Shown: positions 41,719 to 64,000 of the stretch, in pieces
How the letters are laid out: every line of letters begins with the position of its first letter
How positions within the stretch are numbered: the first letter of the stretch is position 1
Source: an uncultured Candidatus Saccharibacteria bacterium
Lineage (GTDB): Bacteria > Patescibacteriota > Minisyncoccia > Phycocordibacterales > CAYSCM01
Direction: 5' to 3'
Assembly: GCA_964429815.1 (NCBI GenBank)
Contig: CAYSCM010000001.1
Coordinates: 32,001-96,000, forward strand
DNA: 64,000 nt
Notes under the pieces: model-generated
Told to the model about the DNA's origin: nothing
Seen by the model: the letters and a program-made list of their open reading frames with translations, nothing else
The model's database searches: none
Made by a program: the position numbers and the translations under genes

Positions 41719-42498
41719 TTATTCAATGATCTCGTACTCGGCCGCTTCGGCTGACACTGAAATGCTCGAGTCGTGTTTTCGGCGCGCAAGGTATACAGCG
41801 CCTGCGCCGAGCGCTAGCACGGTGCCGAGCGCGAGCCACCACAGGTACGGGGAGTGTTGTTCCTCCCCAGTAGCCACGAACCCCGGCTTCGGGGTCAGTG
41901 CGCTCTCTACAACGCCCGGGGGTGGCTCGAGGTTGGCGGGCTTTCGCGACGCTTTTTGTGTAATCACATTTGGGGAAGAAGGAGCGGTTTTTGCTGTCGG
42001 GATATCGGCTTGCGCGAGTGCCCGACCTGGAGAAGGTTTCGCGGCGATGAAGCCTCCGAGGGTGCGTGAGAGCGAAAGTCCGTCCCCTGCCGCGCCAAGC
42101 GCGTGTGTGTACGTGACCGAATCGAGCGTCGAGCTTCCGCTCAAAAGCGCGATTGTTTCGCCGGTATTCGAGAGCGAAAACGAGCTATCAAAAAGCGCCC
42201 CGGTGTAAGATGGGTTGTCGGCCAAAAATTTCGCCGGATCGGCGGCGATGACCGCATACACCCCCGAAGCCAGAACAGACGTACCGGACGCTTTGAGAGT
42301 GTGTCTGACTCCACCCTCGAGCAGCCTGAGGGTCGTAAGGTCGACGGGTCCGCCTCCCCCGTTGTATACCTCGATCCACTCGCGGCCATCATCGGCACCA
42401 GGGAGGTCATAGAGCACCTCGCTGATAGAGACCTGCGCGAAAAGCGGTAGTGGAGCGACGAGGAGCCCGATAAGCGCGCTAGTTCGAGTCATCAGCAA
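41719..42498 (-). CDS. lamin-tail-domain (LTD) protein with signal peptide and C-terminal membrane anchor
   Basis: ISEVLYDLPGADDGREWIEVYNGG is the LTD signature. N-terminal hydrophobic leader and C-terminal YLWWLALGTVLALGAGAVYL helix. Confidence 0.7.
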   Translation of the reverse strand: MLMTRTSALIGLLVAPLPLFAQVSISEVLYDLPGADDGREWIEVYNGGGGPVDLTTLRLLEGGVRHTLKASGTSVLASGVYAVIAADPAKFLADNPSYTGALFDSSFSLSNTGETIALLSGSSTLDSVTYTHALGAAGDGLSLSRTLGGFIAAKPSPGRALAQADIPTAKTAPSSPNVITQKASRKPANLEPPPGVVESALTPKPGFVATGEEQHSPYLWWLALGTVLALGAGAVYLARRKHDSSISVSAEAAEYEIIE

Positions 42499-44260
42499 GC
42501 ATTTTTCGAAGCTCTTCGGGTGAGGGTTCGCCCGTATGCTGTTGTGTCGGAGTCGCTTCGTTGGTCAATTCTTTCGATGATTCCCCCTTTCGTTCCTCCT
42601 GGGCTCGAGCGCGCTCAGCCATAGCCTTTGCGAGTGCATCGCGCAGTGCATTGTTTTGTTTCGGAGTCTCCGGCTGCGCCTGCTCCCTTTTATCTTTCTT
42701 TTCGAGCTCTTTCCCGGCCACCTGGCGTAGCGTCTCGCGAAGTTTCGCAAGATGGTCTCCTGTCGACTGCTGCGGGCGAGAAGATATCTGTGAAGGAACT
42801 CCCGTGGAAGGAGGAGGTGCTCTTCTCTCCTCACGGCGGGTATCAGCTCCGCGCTCAGGGCGCGCTTCAGCATTACGATGTTCGCGGGGACGAGATCCCC
42901 CGTTGCGGTCTCGGGAGGAAACGCCCGCTCCGGCAGGAGCCGTCGATGGTCGCAGGGGTTCCACCGGTTCATGCCACTTGGCAATATCCCGCTCGACATC
43001 AGCACGTGGGCGAGCAAATTGCTGGCGCGACATCGCAAGGATTTCTTGCTTAAAGGAGCGCGTGGGTGCCTCAATTGGCGGAAGAGTTACGGCAGAAAAG
43101 GGCGGCGAGCCGACGCCGTCGATCATGAGTGAGAGGTATATCTGGCGAAGACCAAGGTTGACGATATCCTCTGCAGTAAATTTTGGCGCAAAAACTTTCT
43201 CCAGGAGCTCCGCATCGAGTGGACCCACTCGAAAGGCGATAGTGGTGCCAACGTTGCCAAACACCGCATCGCGCACCTCCTCTTCCATTTGTTCCACATA
43301 TTGATGTGCGATGGTGAGGGAGAGCCTATATTTGCGGGCCTCGGCAAGAATATCCGCAAAGGATGCATTCGCAAACGACTGAAACTCGTCTACGTAAAAA
43401 TAGAGACTGGGGAGTTTGGCCTGTGTTGCGGCGGAAGTATCTGCGCGGCTCATGGCGGCCAAATAGATGCGCGTGGTGAGCATAGAACCAAGAAGTGCTG
43501 TGTTTGTCTCCCCCACTAAGCCCTTGGAGAGATTCATGATGATGATTTTTTTCTCATCCATCAATTTACGCAAGTCAAAAGAAGATTTGGACTGTCCGAT
43601 GATGTTGCGAATAAGGGGGTTGGAGCTGTACTGCCCCACCTTGTTCTGAATTGCAGGGGTTGCTTCTGCTGCGAAGCGCTCAGTGTACTTGGCAAATTCA
43701 TTGACCCAAAACGCTTTCACTGATGGGTCGGAAATGTTAGCGACAACTCGATCTCGATAGGGTTTATCCGAGAGCATGCGGTTCACCGCAAGGAGCGTTG
43801 TGTCTGGATATTCCAAAAGTGCCAAGAGTGTATTGGTAAGGATGTATTCCATGCGGGCGCTCCAGGTGTCTGGGCCCCACACTTTTTTAAAGGCACTCAT
43901 AAGTCCCGAGGCGACGAAGTGTCTTCGCGCTGGACCCACATCTTCCATCACGTTGAAGGCCACCGGGTAGTCGGTATCAAACGGCGCGAAATAGAGCACG
44001 TCTTTCACACGCTCGGCCGGAATATAGTCGAGAAGTTTTTCAGCCGTGCCACCGTGCGGATCGATAAAGGCAAGTCCCTCACCATTCATAATGTCCTGGA
44101 TGGCCATGTTCTCGAGAAGAGTCGACTTACCCATGCCCGTTTTACCGATGACATAGACGTGCCGTGAGCGGTCTTTGGCTTTGATGCCAAAGGGGGTGCG
44201 CTTGCCGCGTGAGTCGGTAACAGCAAAATACGTTATCCTCTCGTCGGGATTCATCTTCAT
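42479..44260 (-). CDS. soluble VirD4/TraG/TraD-like (type IV coupling protein-like) P-loop ATPase with a disordered R/E/P-rich tail
   Basis: Walker A VIGKTGMGKST and Walker B-like FYVDEFQSF. The last roughly 170 aa are low-complexity. No N-terminal TM segments. Confidence 0.55.
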   Translation of the reverse strand: MKMNPDERITYFAVTDSRGKRTPFGIKAKDRSRHVYVIGKTGMGKSTLLENMAIQDIMNGEGLAFIDPHGGTAEKLLDYIPAERVKDVLYFAPFDTDYPVAFNVMEDVGPARRHFVASGLMSAFKKVWGPDTWSARMEYILTNTLLALLEYPDTTLLAVNRMLSDKPYRDRVVANISDPSVKAFWVNEFAKYTERFAAEATPAIQNKVGQYSSNPLIRNIIGQSKSSFDLRKLMDEKKIIIMNLSKGLVGETNTALLGSMLTTRIYLAAMSRADTSAATQAKLPSLYFYVDEFQSFANASFADILAEARKYRLSLTIAHQYVEQMEEEVRDAVFGNVGTTIAFRVGPLDAELLEKVFAPKFTAEDIVNLGLRQIYLSLMIDGVGSPPFSAVTLPPIEAPTRSFKQEILAMSRQQFARPRADVERDIAKWHEPVEPLRPSTAPAGAGVSSRDRNGGSRPREHRNAEARPERGADTRREERRAPPPSTGVPSQISSRPQQSTGDHLAKLRETLRQVAGKELEKKDKREQAQPETPKQNNALRDALAKAMAERARAQEERKGESSKELTNEATPTQQHTGEPSPEELRKMLADDSN

Positions 44261-44338
44261 GAGTATAGCAATTTTGCCGCCATCGCGATGCAAAAAGCCC
44301 CGCACTCTTTTGCGGGGCTTCCAGGTGTACGGCTTCGA

Positions 44339-44554
44339 TCAATGAACGCTGACCGGCTCGAGATCGTGGCTTTTCACGGCCTGGAACGCTGTGTCACGGT
44401 CGCTGATGATCGCGAGTTGGGTCCCGTCTGCCGCGTGGACGGAGAATGCGCGCTCACCATTTTCAACGACCGGCTTGATGTAGGCCACCCTATTTAGCAT
44501 CCACACCTGCCACTCAGCCTGCGTCAGGGGCCTGTAGATGGTGTCGGTTTTCAT
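44339..44554 (-). CDS. DUF1150-family small protein
   Basis: VAYIKPV...FSVHAADGTQLAIISDRDTAFQAVKSHDLEPVSVH matches the DUF1150 pattern from memory. SD GAGGTG at 44559-44564. Confidence 0.6.
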   Translation of the reverse strand: MKTDTIYRPLTQAEWQVWMLNRVAYIKPVVENGERAFSVHAADGTQLAIISDRDTAFQAVKSHDLEPVSVH

Positions 44555-48282: not shown

Positions 48283-48310
48283 TTCCCGATACTACTTTAT
48301 TTTACTGAGG

Positions 48311-48392
48311 TGGGCGAGGGGAGAGTTGAACTCCCAATCCTTGCGGAATACGCTTCTGAGGCGTACGTGTATACCAATTCCACCACTCGCCC
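48311..48392 (-). tRNA. tRNA-Leu (anticodon CAG), class II with long variable arm
   Basis: Hand-folded. Acceptor GGGCGAG/CTCGCCC. Anticodon stem TACGC/GCGTA with loop CTCAGAA. Variable arm TCC-GCAA-GGA. T arm GGGAG-TTCAACT-CTCCC. No encoded CCA. Confidence 0.9.
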
Positions 48393-48544
48393 GTCTGTTC
48401 CATCCTACTCAAATATGAAAACGGGTCTAGCCGACATCAGACCGCGTGGGTCTCATTTAAAGGCGCCATCAATCCGATTTAAGCCTTCGACACACTGTTC
48501 TGTCAGCCGACTGGCGAGGGGCGGAAAAGCTGTACCGTCCTGTG

Positions 48545-48616
48545 TGCGAGTGGAAGGAATCGAACCTTCGACCTCTGTCTTATCAGGACAGCGTTCTACC
48601 ACTGAACTACACTCGC
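48545..48616 (-). tRNA. tRNA-Ile (anticodon GAU)
   Basis: Hand-folded. Acceptor GCGAGTG/CACTCGC. D arm GTTC/GAAC. Anticodon stem CTGTC/GACAG with loop CTGATAA. T arm GAAGG-TTCGATT-CCTTC. No encoded CCA. Confidence 0.9.
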
Positions 48617-50516: not shown

Positions 50517-51981
<1,465 letters not shown>

Positions 51982-60914: not shown

Positions 60915-61022
60915 AACCTGGCGGCTACCTACTCTCCCCTTGCGAGTACCATCGGCGCTAGCGGGCTTAACGGCCGTGTTCGGAATGAGAACGGGTGTTT
61001 CCCCGCCGCCAAACCACCAGAT
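60915..61022 (-). rRNA. rrf: 5S rRNA
   Basis: Minus strand: CTGGTGGTTTGGCGGCGGGGAAACACCCGTTCTCATTCCGAACACGGCCGTTAAGCCCGCTAGCGCCGATGGTACTCGCAAGGGGAGAGTAGGTAGCCGCCAGGTT. Helix I closes with G-U pairs. Flanked by the 12-bp inverted repeat 60889-60900 / 61057-61068. Confidence 0.85.
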
Positions 61023-61073
61023 TATAAATTCCAACTATTTTCGATCTCTAAGTGTGACATTTTGGACGGATTC

Positions 61074-61119
61074 TCGGAATGAGAACGGGTGTTTCCCCGC
61101 CGCCAAACCACCAGATTAT
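61074..61119 (-). repeat. orphan duplicate of the 5S 5' half
   Basis: 46-nt perfect direct repeat of 60980-61025. Confidence 0.85.
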
Positions 61120-62388
61120 GAGATTCAAAAAGTCGGGTTCGGCAGCCGACTTCCTCGATAGGATGAGGAAGATCGGCTGCCGCCCGCGCAAGGACGTGAG
61201 CAGTTGAGCGGGGCGCTCCTCCCGAGCGGCCACCATTCCCATCGCAGTGCTAAAGCGCTTCTTAGAATGGTCGCGGAGGGCGACACCATTCCAGCTCCGC
61301 AAAGGGTCCGTGCACGCTTCTTTCCCACGTCCGAAAAGCGAAAACAAAGAACTTAACGTTTCGAAGCGTCCGAAATCCGGGTAGATTTCGGCCACCAGTA
61401 AAACGTCAAGCGGGTTAAAAAAGTAACGAAAATCATATTCAATCAATTGCGACATGCAGATTCCCTGACAGGAAACTCGACGTATTAGTACGCCTCGGCT
61501 CAATCCGTTGCCGGACTTCCACCTGGCGCCTATCAACGTAATAGTCTCTTACGGGTCTCAACGAGTCCTCATCTCAGAGTTGGCTTCTTGCTTAGATGCT
61601 TTCAGCAATTATCCATGCCGAACTTAGCTACGCAGCGTGCTTCTGGCGAAACAGCTGCCACACCAGAGGTTCGTCCATTCCGGTCCTCTCGTACTAGGAA
61701 CAGATCTCTTCAAGACTCAACGCCCATGGTAGATAGGAGACCAACCTGTCTCACGACGGTTTGAACCCAGCTCGCGTATCTTTTTAATTGGCGAACAGCC
61801 AAACCCTTGGGACCTTCTCCAGCCCCAGGATAAGATGAGCCGACATCGAGGTGCCGAACGGTACCGTCGCTATGGACGCTTGGGTACCACTAGCCTGTTA
61901 TCCCCAGAGTAGCTTTTGTCCGATAATCTTCCCCCGCATCTAATGCGTAAGGTCGGTTCACTTTGCTCCGCTTTCGCGCCTGCTCGGCATGTACGCCTTA
62001 CAGTCAAGCTCCCTTTTGCCAATACACTATCGGCACGGTTTCCATTCGCGCCTAGGGAACCTTAATAGACTCCTCCGTTACTCTTTAGGAGGATAGCGCC
62101 CCACTAAAACTGCCTGCCATGCAGTGTCCCTCATCGTTTTTGCCGACGAGGTTAGAGACTATATGTTGTCAGGATGGTATTTCACTGGCGAGTCCACACT
62201 CCCCGGAAGGAATGCTTCAACCTCTCCCATCTATGCTGCGCAGAAAAAACATAGCCCCACTACAAAGCTACAGTAAAGCTTCTGGGGTCTTTTCGTCTAA
62301 CCACGGGTAACCGGCATCTTCACCGGTATTGTATTTTCACCAGGCTGATCCTCGAGACAGTCCCCCAGTCGTTACACCATTCGTGCAC

Positions 62389-62428
<40 letters not shown>

Positions 62429-63158
62429 GATTATAGTTATCGCCGACATTCACCAGGGCTTGCATAGCCCAGCACTACACATAAATGCATAGCACCATCC
62501 ATGCTTGACCTTCTGGCATTGGTCAGGTGTCACCCCCTATACATCCTCTTACGAGTTCGCAGGGAGCTGTGTTTTTGGTAAACAGTCGCCAGGAGTACTT
62601 TCGCTGCGGCCCCGCCGACTTGCGTCGAAAGGGCAGGCCTTATTGCTAACGTACGGCCGCTTTTTTGCCGAGTTCCTTGAGGATCAATCACCTGTTCGCC
62701 TTGGTCTACTCGACCTGACCACCTGTGTCGGATTACGGTACGGTCTCGTGTTTGTTATGCTTAGAGATTTTTCTTGGAAGCGTGCTCCCATGCGTAAATC
62801 CTCCGTAGAGGATCTCCCCGTGATGCTCGGACTTGCGACTCCCGGATTTTCCTAGAAGTCATCCTCACACCCCAGACACCAATCCAATAAGATGCGCATA
62901 GTACAACCCTTCGTCCTCTCATCGCACAAACACAAGGTCATGGAATATTAACCATGCATCCATTAGGTACGGCTTTCGCCATCCCCTTAGGACCGACTAA
63001 CCCTTGGCTGATCTTCATCGCCAAGGAAACCTTGGTCTTTCGGCGTGGGGGAGTCTCACCCCCATTGTGGTTACTCGTGCCGGCATTCTCACTTCGCAAC
63101 GCTCCACGCTCAGTTACCCTCGCGCTTCATGGCGGATGCGAACGCTCTCCTACCGCGT

Positions 63159-63336
63159 TATGTGTTTCGTTGAGGAGCCGAGGATGGCTCCTCGGCTATT
63201 AGTCTTCTTCGTCGTTATAGATGAACGGTATAGGTCCAAACATTGACCAGACCGCGACCGCAATGACGTAGATTGCAAACCAGTCGTCTTCCAACATGGC
63301 TTCACCTCTTTTGTACTTTCCTCAACGAAACACACA
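63159..63336 (-). other. intervening sequence (IVS) replacing 23S helix 45
   Basis: The E. coli hairpin GCAGCGACGCTTATGCGTTGTTG is replaced by about 175 nt. The insert is closed by a 16+2 bp stem (63159-63176 / 63319-63336) between CCGAAACTGAGGG and GGTAGGAGAGCGTTC. Confidence 0.7.
63199..63297 (-). CDS. candidate 32-codon mini-ORF inside the 23S IVS
   Basis: Own translation: MLEDDWFAIYVIAVAVWSMFGPIPFIYNDEED. SD GAGGTG lies 5 nt upstream. Stop TAA is followed by the 9-bp hairpin 63176-63197. Confidence 0.3.
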   Translation of the reverse strand: MLEDDWFAIYVIAVAVWSMFGPIPFIYNDEED

Positions 63337-63417
63337 ACACCCTCAGTTTCGGTACAACGCTTAAGCCCCGATTATTTCCGGCGCAAGATCTCTCGATGAG
63401 TGAGCTGTTACGCTTTC

Positions 63418-63449
<32 letters not shown>

Positions 63450-64000
63450 TCATTGTCAGAGAAATTTCACCTCCTTAAGATGCACTGAGCGTTGATTTTG
63501 GGACCTTAACTTGAGATCTAGGCTCTTCCCTTTTTGACCACCGGAGCTTAGCCCCCGGAGTCTAACTGCGTGGTAGTGGAGAACGGTATTTGGAGTTTGA
63601 TAGGATTGACGAGCTTTCGCCCTATTCAATCCTTCCAGTGCTCTACCCCCGTTCTATAAACCACACGCCAGCCCAAAAGCTGTTTCGGAGAGAACCAGCT
63701 ATTACCAGGTTCGATAAGCTTTTCACTCCAACCCACAAGTCATCCGAATGCGTTGAACGACATACCGGTTCGGGCCTCCCCACTCCTTTCGGAGTGGTTC
63801 ACCCTGCTCATGGGTAGCTCACCTGGCTTCGGGTCGTATACGCGCTACTTAGTCGCGCTATTCACACTCGCTTTCGCTACGGCTTCGTCCGACAAAGGAC
63901 TTAGCCTCGCAACGCGCATACACTCGCCGGCTCATTCTTCAATAGGCACGCGGTCACCCGGAAGGATAGAAGCACCCAAGACTAGCCGATGGGTCGTTGC

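Follow-up and report, generated by a model that had tools for sequence, protein, structure and literature searches.

A soluble coupling-protein-type ATPase and an anchored lamin-tail protein as a possible DNA-handling pair in Patescibacteria

Patescibacteria cannot make nucleotides, which makes the route by which they acquire them an important matter. In one genetically tractable species ComEC is dispensable and the T4SS is essential, and the phylum contains thousands of orphan coupling-protein homologs (PMC12102498, PMC10633639). We analyzed a 64-kb stretch of Patescibacteria DNA (hereafter, the window) in which a gene for such a coupling-type ATPase lies between a DUF1150 gene and a gene for an exported protein with a lamin-tail domain (LTD), and asked which of these genes, if any, act together and on what. 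If the ATPase cooperates with a receptor for DNA on the cell surface, the phylum's largest class would offer a concrete, testable protein pair for DNA capture and translocation; if it serves a T4SS instead, its conserved tail motifs would be candidate docking sites.

Locus layout and the LarA-like gene

All three open reading frames are carried co-oriented on the minus strand (Table 1), as the original prediction had it. That prediction also described a 71-aa DUF1150-like protein with the SD GAGGTG, a VirD4/TraG/TraD-like P-loop ATPase of about 590 aa without transmembrane (TM) helices, with an R/E/P/S/A-rich low-complexity end and a stop overlapping the next gene by 14-20 nt, and a secreted LTD protein with a C-terminal anchor; every one of these descriptions held. 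So did the statement that T4SS, pilus and relaxase genes are absent from the window: Pfam annotation detected no T4SS, pilus, ComEC, relaxase or competence families in the annotated parts of the 64 kb. Around the trio it identified a glycan-biosynthesis cluster, SecDF and FtsW. The window also contains rRNA and tRNA genes (Rfam), and the genome size is roughly 0.5 Mb.

Table 1. Coordinates of the genes, domains and RNA element of the locus within the window
Feature	Position	Strand	Basis
DUF1150 / LarA-like gene, 71 aa	44339..44554	(-)	Pfam PF06620
Intrinsic-terminator-like hairpin and U-run in the DUF1150/ATPase gap	44292..44322	(-)	RNA fold
ATPase gene, 593 aa	42479..44260	(-)	Three T4CP Pfam families
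ATPase core, residues 1-430, VirD4/TrwB type	42971..44260	(-)	
ATPase C-terminal tail, residues 431-593 and stop, disordered	42479..42970	(-)	Composition, low pLDDT, motifs
Exported LTD protein with C-terminal anchor	41719..42492	(-)	Pfam LTD, hydropathy, orthologs
Lamin-tail domain, residues 21-131 of the 259-aa form, predicted extracellular head	42106..42438	(-)	PF00932
C-terminal transmembrane helix YLWWLALGTVLALGAGAVYLA, motif P-Y just before	41785..41847	(-)	
Predicted cytoplasmic tail RRKHDSSISVSAEAAEYEIIE, ending in [DE]E[FY]xI[IVE]E	41722..41784	(-)	

The DUF1150 protein matches Pfam PF06620 (E=1.4e-14, 54.4 bits, cutoff 25), and GAGGTG precedes its ATG by 6 nt. LarA (CCNA_03707), a Lon-activating heat-shock protein of Caulobacter crescentus, is a member of this family; the family function reported is Lon regulation, with a C-terminal V-x-V-H degron whose critical residues in LarA are V86, V88, and H89 (PMC10665427). 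The window protein resembles LarA in its Pfam domain, its small size, its C-terminus (...EPVSVH, which fits V-x-V-H-COOH) and the position of close homologs after hsp20, whereas it differs in lying on a Patescibacteria chromosome, in having no hsp20 beside it, and in scoring only 30 bits against NCBIfam BQ00720, under the cutoff of 80. Its nearest homologs are 73-83% identical. The two close ones whose context was inspected both follow hsp20, which suggests a heat-shock role; their gene context is of alphaproteobacterial type (one is named Alphaproteobacteria by NCBI), and their C-terminal end is identical to that of the window protein.

The 3' side of the gene carries the sequence GGAAGCCCCGC-AAAAGA-GTGCGGGGCTTTTTG, which direct RNA folding identified as a hairpin of -20.9 kcal/mol (z=-2.9; none of 200 shuffled sequences folds as stably) and which a consensus terminator scan omitted because part of its T-run pairs into the stem. 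This hairpin and U-run had been overlooked in the first reading of the locus. Adjacency and shared orientation in the window would suit a single functional unit of DUF1150, ATPase, and LTD protein, which by the original prediction's own criterion should show conserved linkage in relatives; the neighborhood survey contradicts this for DUF1150. At none of the 80 related loci does it adjoin the ATPase, even with the threshold relaxed to E<=50, nor does the closest relative have it there. These absences and the intervening terminator led us to discard DUF1150 as a module member, and with its homologs after hsp20 and its family's function in Lon regulation they make a three-gene unit scarcely credible. 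From the 80/80 absence, the terminator, the homologs in alphaproteobacterial-type context and the PVSVH end, we conclude that the gene is a lineage-specific insertion, own terminator included, between DUF4015 and the ATPase, functionally unrelated to the ATPase/LTD pair. It belongs to the LarA family (Lon-activator-like) and came in by horizontal transfer, the donor probably being an alphaproteobacterium. Such gene flow into an ultra-small bacterium would extend a Lon regulator described as alphaproteobacteria-conserved to a Patescibacteria chromosome.

The ATPase and its relatives

The ATPase measures 593 aa from its ATG, like its database twin (P0001), or 608 aa when counted from the GTG upstream of it, at 44305. 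It scores above the curated cutoffs of three Pfam families of type IV coupling proteins (T4CPs), namely TrwB_AAD_bind (30.3 bits, cutoff 20.5, covering profile positions 12 to 311 of 387), T4SS-DNA_transf (29.5, cutoff 20.1) and TraG-D_C (27.1, cutoff 22). Its core consists of a RecA-like nucleotide-binding domain, an FtsK/HerA-superfamily P-loop domain with both Walker A (G39KTGMGKS) and Walker B (YFYVDE, 287-292), and an inserted all-alpha domain of eight helices (113-235) between strands 88-91 and 239-243 of the structure model, helical inserts being also found in VirB4 and HerA and therefore not exclusive to T4CPs. T4CPs are its best fold matches, with only 13-15% identity to the solved ones. 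The N-terminal TM segment of T4CPs is absent, only ~38 residues precede Walker A, and the best 19-residue Kyte-Doolittle window reaches 1.09. Judged by its sequence, the protein is a soluble motor, probably of the type IV coupling-protein (VirD4/TrwB) family. The last 163 residues (13% E, 13% R, 12% A, 10% P, 8% S) have AlphaFold confidence mostly <50, with helices at 501-521, 536-559, and 581-589, and homolog alignment revealed conserved motifs in this tail (L..LR..L, LK.ALA.VL and a C-terminal L[RE].M[LM]), the last helix corresponding to the extreme C-terminal motif EELRKMLADD. The ATPase thus shares with the T4CPs TrwB of R388, VirD4/Cag-beta, DotL, and TraD not only the core architecture and Walker motifs but also a flexible C-terminal tail with a conserved terminal motif. 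It differs from them in the missing N-terminal TM domain and in the missing link to a T4SS or relaxase: neither these nor VirB4 were found within the annotated parts of the 64 kb or beside its homologs in the contexts inspected at 80 related loci.

The family is widespread in Patescibacteria, in agreement with the original prediction of a distribution typical of small-genome bacteria (our homolog searches; PMC12102498). All 8000 scored candidates were significant, the best 120 of these 8000 sharing 56-76% identity with the window ATPase; matches at E<=1e-30 extend to 5,846 cluster representatives, and all 80 genome loci with a related ATPase come from Patescibacteria. Core identity across Paceibacteria is 58-78%, far above what we would expect of plasmid-borne T4CPs within a lineage, and an alignment of 50 homologs has ~170 invariant columns; by these measures the ATPase is a core gene under strong constraint. 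Orphan coupling-protein homologs in this phylum are already known since 2025, when Quinonero-Coronel et al. reported 5,713 T4CP homologs in 2,918 Patescibacteria genomes, only 148 of them near virB4, and suggested exaptation (PMC12102498). These orphan VirD4-type proteins, including a DUF8128-T4CP long form, belong to the same broad family as the window ATPase (PMC12102498). Long-form relatives are 47-54% identical to it in the ATPase domain and carry an N-terminal TM segment and DUF8128 (~400 residues), both missing from the short form of the window; some of these TM-anchored relatives also have an S1 nucleic-acid-binding domain at the C-terminus. No stand-alone DUF8128 or TM module was found near the short form in the window or in the 80 loci. 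Unlike long forms, the short-form clade frequently has an anchored LTD/HhH protein next in line.

The anchored partner and its linkage to the ATPase

The start codon of the LTD gene is ATG 42492 (257 aa) or TTG 42498 (259 aa), and the gene accordingly overlaps the ATPase gene, whose stop codon occupies 42479-42481, by 14 or 20 nt. The protein has an N-terminal signal-like hydrophobic segment, a match to PF00932 over residues 21-131 (E=4.9e-13, 49.8 bits, cutoff 34.3) and, near the C-terminus, a TM helix with a tail of 21 residues behind it. Among 46 orthologous partners, Pfam detects LTD in 42, PKD in 34, and HHH_3 in 10. In these ten, a ComEA-type helix-hairpin-helix (HhH) DNA-binding domain, HHH_3 (E down to 3.5e-21), takes the place of the LTD head; the PKD-LTD2 region of HhH-headed and LTD-headed partners remains homologous (32% identity, E=3e-21), only the head being swapped. 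Pfam finds no HhH or PKD in the window protein itself, and its resemblance to ComEA is a functional one, by orthology, with no membership for the window copy. We know of no proven DNA-binding activity of an LTD, and the LTD-to-HhH swap, if the two proteins do act on DNA, would rank among the clearer genomic hints of bacterial LTDs engaging it. LTDs occur in extracellular nucleases such as ExeM, which still degrades DNA without its LTD (PMC6085458). Like ExeM of Shewanella and Xds of Vibrio, the partner combines a signal peptide, then an LTD, and a C-terminal hydrophobic anchor, although those enzymes act on extracellular DNA and the window partner has no nuclease domain (PMC6085458).

An anchored LTD(-PKD-LTD) protein lies directly 3' of the ATPase, often overlapping its stop, in 46 of 75 evaluable loci; at ~40% of loci an epimerase or glycosyltransferase gene comes right after the ATPase. 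This adjacency is no better conserved than background synteny, with rsmI conserved in 48/56 loci, the epimerase in 40/67, and the LTD partner beside the ATPase in 38/67. Since the whole rsmI-DUF4015-ATPase-LTD-epimerase stretch is syntenic, we rejected neighborhood conservation as proof of coupling between ATPase and partner, which we can therefore only infer. Stop/start overlap was likewise set aside, because the window is rich in overlaps of 4-14 nt and, in so compact a genome, one of 14 nt says little. No LTD/HhH neighbor accompanies the divergent relatives (35-53% identity) or the TM-anchored DUF8128 long forms examined, and none was found beside ATPase relatives from plasmids or the viral catalog. 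The literature passages searched contain no link between a short-form ATPase and an anchored LTD/HhH protein. The C-termini of the two proteins do co-vary: the tail motif [DE]E[FY]xI[IVE]E, present in about 28 of the 46 partners, accompanies an ATPase ending in LRxMLxVD at 22/27 loci versus 4/49 for other ATPase types, a comparison confounded by phylogeny. Both C-terminal peptides are acidic, which argues against a simple direct pairing.

Possible roles of the pair

We propose, with a probability of roughly 40%, that the two genes encode a module of the cell envelope that captures and translocates DNA. The proposal builds on the family membership, solubility, extreme conservation, and tail anatomy of the ATPase and on the topology, head swap, and C-terminal co-variation of its partner. 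By analogy with the VirD4/TrwB family, the ATPase would assemble into a hexameric ring and act as a translocase. The partner is predicted to be exported by Sec, to expose its LTD head outside the cell, and to cross the membrane with one helix near its C-terminus, which leaves a short, conserved tail in the cytoplasm. On the cell surface it would catch double-stranded DNA from outside, and its cytoplasmic tail, together with the short helices of the disordered ATPase tail, would recruit the soluble motor to the membrane. The motor would then drive nucleic acid through a channel whose genes lie elsewhere (ComEC or the T4SS translocon of Patescibacteria). Import is likelier than export, given that these bacteria are unable to synthesize nucleotides. 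The original idea of an orphan DNA-handling module survives in part: the ATPase is an orphan in the window and a DNA-handling role gains support from the HhH head that replaces the LTD in 10/46 partners, whereas DUF1150 had to be dropped from it. A more specific scenario, which we regard as unlikely, is that one large Paceibacteria clade redeployed a coupling-type hexameric motor, bereft of the membrane anchor it once had, for competence-like DNA import, tethering it by short motifs of its disordered tail to a C-terminally anchored LTD/HhH surface receptor. If so, it would be an inward-running T4SS part and a possible way for nucleotide auxotrophs to feed on foreign DNA.

Known systems offer partial parallels. 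Recruitment to the membrane would resemble that in pIP501, where a separately encoded membrane protein, TraI, is the proposed anchor of the TM-less T4CP TraJ; TraI is small, has two predicted TM segments and belongs to a conjugation operon, whereas the candidate anchor of the window is single-pass, has a large extracellular region (LTD, HhH, and PKD in the family) and lies outside any conjugation operon (PMC12857230). Monoderm competence, with its ComEA receptor, ComEC channel, and ComFA motor, shares with the proposed pair a surface DNA receptor and a cytoplasmic ATP-driven motor, the HHH_3 of the ComEA family being the very head of the 10 swapped partners; the window copy, in contrast, has an LTD head and is anchored at the C-terminus, and no ComEC gene is nearby. 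The motors also differ, ComFA being a DEAD-box helicase and the window ATPase being of the FtsK/HerA/VirD4 class. ComEC is reported in most Patescibacteria and ComEA in only some (PMC13293708). T4SS-type components take part in DNA import in the archaeal Ced system and in Helicobacter pylori ComB (via PMC12102498). Homology of these systems to the ATPase is confined to the P-loop region, where NCBIfam CedD gives a weak match (E=1.2e-4). To our knowledge, both have VirB4-like ATPases and no VirD4.

The main rival to the two-gene module, possible although doubtful, is that a Patescibacteria T4SS encoded elsewhere, typically near dnaA/dnaN, has its true coupling protein in this ATPase, which would recruit protein or DNA substrates to it, the LTD protein being an unrelated surface adhesin or glycoprotein and a chance neighbor of the glycan-biosynthesis cluster. 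Membership in the T4CP family fits this reading, T4CPs can couple protein substrates too, and a disordered tail with short conserved motifs suits substrate or partner docking. TraD, for example, binds TraM via a C-terminal docking tail. The ATPase does without an LTD partner in ~40% of loci and in all more distant relatives examined, and the epimerase and glycosyltransferase genes that come after the partner could mean that the latter belongs functionally with glycan biosynthesis. Moreover, the Paceibacteria T4SS adjoins replication genes and T4CP genes often lie far from virB4 (PMC12102498). The same source, however, places only 148 of 5,713 homologs near virB4 and reports that the S. epibionticum homolog is dispensable whereas the T4SS is essential (PMC12102498), and that T4SS is reported by Wang et al. 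to have no recognizable coupling protein or relaxase (PMC10633639). At 58-78% identity across orders, the core is also, in our judgement, conserved to an unusual degree for a conjugative coupling protein, and the HhH/LTD head swap and co-varying C-termini would be left unexplained.

It is improbable that the ATPase is instead a housekeeping cytoplasmic DNA translocase or helicase of HerA or FtsK type, engaged in segregation, repair, or resolution and lacking an envelope role. It shares the P-loop superfamily of these enzymes, and its match to Pfam DUF87 (22.3 bits) stays under the cutoff of 23.2. In the structure model only three short strands, and no HerA HAS-barrel, lie ahead of Walker A, and no NurA or nuclease gene neighbors it in the window locus or in the contexts of related loci inspected; we consider the HerA classification weaker than the T4CP one, with both HAS domain and NurA partner missing. 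A part in a defense or mobile-element system seems very improbable: its resemblance to mad8, DptH, and HerA-type ATPases, together with its relatives on plasmids and phages, would speak for it, yet no methylase, nuclease, or Sir2 partner is found nearby. Defense genes are typically patchy and fast-evolving, whereas this extremely conserved core gene occupies the same syntenic place in the chromosome in many lineages of Paceibacteria.

The ATPase and its relatives

The three open reading frames of the original prediction are real and, as described, co-oriented; they lie on the minus strand (see table). The middle one, announced as a TraG/TraD/VirD4-like ATPase of roughly 590 aa, encodes a 593-aa protein scoring above the curated cutoffs of three coupling-protein Pfam families (TrwB_AAD_bind, T4SS-DNA_transf, and TraG-D_C), with intact Walker A (G39KTGMGKS) and Walker B (YFYVDE, residues 287-292) motifs. 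Its reported lack of N-terminal transmembrane (TM) helices was borne out, the highest hydropathy of any 19-residue window being 1.09, so that a TM helix is absent; so was its low-complexity tail (residues 431-593, E/R/A/P/S-rich, pLDDT mostly <50). The family is very large: at least 8000 candidates were scored, all significant, the best 120 of them sharing 56-76% identity with the query, and the cluster representatives at 50% identity, searched exhaustively, gave 22,052 matches at E ≤ 0.001, of which 5,846 reach E ≤ 1e-30. An alignment of 50 homologues contains ~170 invariant columns in residues 1 to ~440, whereas in the tail only three short motifs can be aligned (L..LR..L, LK.ALA.VL, and, at the C-terminus, L[RE].M[LM]), which form isolated helices at residues 501-521, 536-559, and 581-589 in the AlphaFold model.

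Foldseek comparison with the PDB ranked, in order, Cag-beta/VirD4 (4e-10), DotL, HerA (4e-9), TrwB, and VirB4, placing the protein in the VirD4/VirB4/HerA clade. Type IV coupling proteins (T4CPs), to which the protein had been likened from the outset, head this ranking and are favoured by the sequence profiles, although in fold they lead VirB4 only narrowly. The segment at residues ~359-388 (window ~43097-43186, minus strand; FAPKFTAEDIVNLGLRQIYLSLMIDGVGSPPFSAVTLPP) is near-invariant, has a pLDDT of only 33-42, and may belong to an interface or a pore, beyond the reach of a monomer model.

In relatives at 47-54% identity, the ATPase is preceded by an N-terminal TM segment and a ~400-residue DUF8128 (PF26449), and in some it is followed by an S1 (nucleic-acid-binding) domain at the C-terminus; around the short-form ATPase, no DUF8128 is encoded. 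Other Patescibacteria, Berkelbacteria among them, commonly have this long form (homologues P0250, P0257, P0268, P0280, and P0344; loci L090 and L091), sometimes as a tandem pair of paralogues (L091). In the long-form contexts examined, the neighbours are housekeeping genes, and neither T4SS nor LTD genes are present.

The anchored partner protein

In 46 of the 75 loci whose sequence runs on for 1 kb or more past the ATPase, the product of the gene directly 3′ of it has a signal peptide and a C-terminal TM helix, and this gene often overlaps the ATPase stop codon. The window's copy has two candidate start codons (see table) and therefore overlaps the stop by 14-20 nt, the value first reported. 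Its product, rightly described as secreted and C-terminally anchored, begins with a signal-like N-terminus, carries a lamin-tail domain (LTD) at residues 21-131 (PF00932, E = 4.9e-13), and closes with a C-terminal TM helix followed by a tail of 21 residues.

Pfam found LTD in 42 of the 46 partners, PKD in 34, and HHH_3, the DNA-binding module of ComEA, in 10. According to the per-protein Pfam tables there are two layouts, LTD-PKD-LTD-TM and HhH-PKD-LTD-TM, and the PKD-LTD2 region of an LTD-headed protein aligns with that of an HhH-headed one at 32% identity (E = 3e-21). On these sequence grounds, it is one orthologous protein in which only the N-terminal head is swapped. The window's partner is a short version, in which a low-complexity linker joins the LTD to the TM helix. 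A P-[YW] motif recurs just ahead of the C-terminal helix (e.g., ...WP|Y and ...SP|W in A1, the alignment of anchored partners; window 41785-41853), basic residues follow it, and several members stop right past it. This layout resembles C-terminal sorting signals, for instance the GlyGly-CTERM that ExeM carries. ExeM is also one of the extracellular nucleases in which LTDs are found, and it keeps degrading DNA when its LTD is missing (PMC6085458). Among Patescibacteria, ComEA is reported in only some and ComEC in most (PMC13293708). The ATPase family and the orphan status of Patescibacteria coupling-protein homologues are already published (PMC12102498); the literature passages searched mention neither the short form without a TM segment, nor that it is frequently paired with an anchored LTD/HhH/PKD protein, nor the exchange of head domains. 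The S. epibionticum homologue is reported as dispensable (PMC12102498; PMC10633639).

Possible coupling of the two genes and possible roles

Features on the minus strand around the ATPase gene
Feature	Position	Strand	Remarks
LTD gene	start ATG 42492 or TTG 42498	-	overlaps ATPase stop
ATPase, 593 aa	ATG 44260 to stop 42479	-	database twin P0001, 100% identical, same length
Hairpin + U-run after DUF1150 stop	44292-44322	-	fold -20.9 kcal/mol, z = -2.9
DUF1150 / LarA-like gene, 71 aa	44339-44554	-	Pfam PF06620, E = 1.4e-14
DUF4015 putative glycoside hydrolase, N-terminal TM segment	44620-45975	-	PF13200, E = 5e-86
16S gene	50519-51980	-	Rfam
5S and 23S genes	60916-61021, 61464-64000 (overall 60916-64000)	-	

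The window is chromosomal, and the precomputed annotation of the flanks includes a large glycan-biosynthesis cluster, SecDF, and FtsW but, in agreement with the original prediction, no T4SS, pilus, or relaxase genes, nor ComEC. The cell-surface glycan cluster extends over ~40 kb (window ~1-41700) directly after the LTD gene, with many epimerases/dehydratases, GT4 glycosyltransferases, two sulfotransferases, a radical-SAM enzyme, TPP enzymes, a CDP-glycerol glycerophosphotransferase (Glyphos_transf), a Polysacc_synt flippase, and a cytidylyltransferase. Among the rRNA genes, 16S is unlinked from 5S/23S, with ~9 kb of protein-coding genes (SecD, SecF, a sugar transferase, an epimerase, a glycosyltransferase, and FtsW) in between; tRNA-Ile and tRNA-Leu lie at 48309-48616, a further 2 kb downstream of 16S.

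Of the 67 loci that extend 3 kb or more past the ATPase, 38 have the partner next to it, an adjacency no better conserved than that of rsmI upstream (48/56) or the epimerase downstream (40/67). The DUF4015 gene is upstream in 27 of 56 loci and so belongs to a conserved rsmI-DUF4015-ATPase-LTD-epimerase synteny. Overlapping genes are commonplace in this genome, and the partner was not found beside the more distant ATPase relatives examined. About 28 of 46 partners end, on the cytoplasmic side, in [DE]E[FY]xI[IVE]E (AEYEIIE in the window). This motif accompanies ATPases ending LRxMLxVD in 22 of 27 loci (the window's ends LRKMLADD), against only 4 of 49 for those ending FEVPEExLRxIFK or LERMMRVTTxDKxP; the pairing occurs in more than one branch of the core-sequence clustering, a signal confounded by phylogeny. 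Both C-terminal peptides are acidic and may therefore dock on a third component instead of each other. Functional coupling is suggested by these data, not decisively.

The most likely reading, with a probability of about 0.4, is a two-gene module for DNA, in which the anchored LTD/HhH protein would bind extracellular DNA and the soluble ring ATPase, brought to the membrane through its short tail motifs, would drive nucleic acid through a channel whose genes lie elsewhere; import would be the favoured direction because these organisms are nucleotide auxotrophs. The pair can be likened to the coupling protein TraJ of pIP501, for which attachment via a separate membrane protein, TraI, has been proposed (PMC12857230). 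The main rival of the two-gene module, rather doubtful but not far behind, is that the ATPase serves the T4SS close to oriC, the LTD protein being an unrelated surface protein that belongs with the glycan cluster.

An unlikely role is that of a cytoplasmic housekeeping translocase. A function in defence or mobile elements is very improbable for this chromosomal gene, even with a PADLOC mad8 match (E = 1.4e-14), a match of phrog_5156 (824 profile positions) to its C-terminal half (E = 1.2e-52), and distant copies, 24-28% identical, in some Bacillus phages (phage G gp156 and SPO1-like). The best plasmid relatives outside the phylum (28-37% identical) are also orphans, mostly on non-mobilizable plasmids; one is near CHAT-domain genes.

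The LarA-like gene

The DUF1150 gene, whose 71-aa product and ribosome-binding motif (GAGGTG, 6 nt ahead of the ATG) were correctly predicted, had been grouped into one trio with the ATPase and LTD genes. A conserved linkage, by which that grouping was to be judged, was not found for it: tblastn with the DUF1150 protein, even at E ≤ 50, placed it next to the ATPase in none of 80 related loci from 80 Patescibacteria genomes, Kaiser-, Adler-, Nomura-, and Zambryskibacteria included. Nor was it found at the locus of the closest ATPase relative (P0003, 73-78% identical), where the order is DUF4015, 28 nt, ATPase, LTD, epimerase, and against which, in a DNA alignment, the window has a ~330-nt insertion at the DUF1150 site. 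Directly 3′ of its stop codon, a GC-rich hairpin precedes a U-run. As an identical protein is present on three contigs from two sources, including a 501,704-nt contig that also carries the ATPase, the insertion is real and no assembly artefact.

The protein is 73-83% identical to its nearest homologues, and in the two contexts examined (P0122 and P0150, the latter from Alphaproteobacteria by its NCBI name) an hsp20 gene directly precedes the homologue. Both end in PVSVH, like the window's protein, which retains the V-x-V-H Lon-activating C-terminus; LarA, a Caulobacter heat-shock protein of the DUF1150 family, is described as activating Lon via its last five residues, V86, V88, and H89 being critical (PMC10665427). 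Judged by sequence and context, a LarA-like gene with a terminator of its own was acquired horizontally here and stands outside the ATPase unit, and the insertion looks like the inter-phylum transfer of a regulator. The LarA family had been described as conserved in alphaproteobacteria, and its presence in a Patescibacteria chromosome is a separate, minor curiosity.
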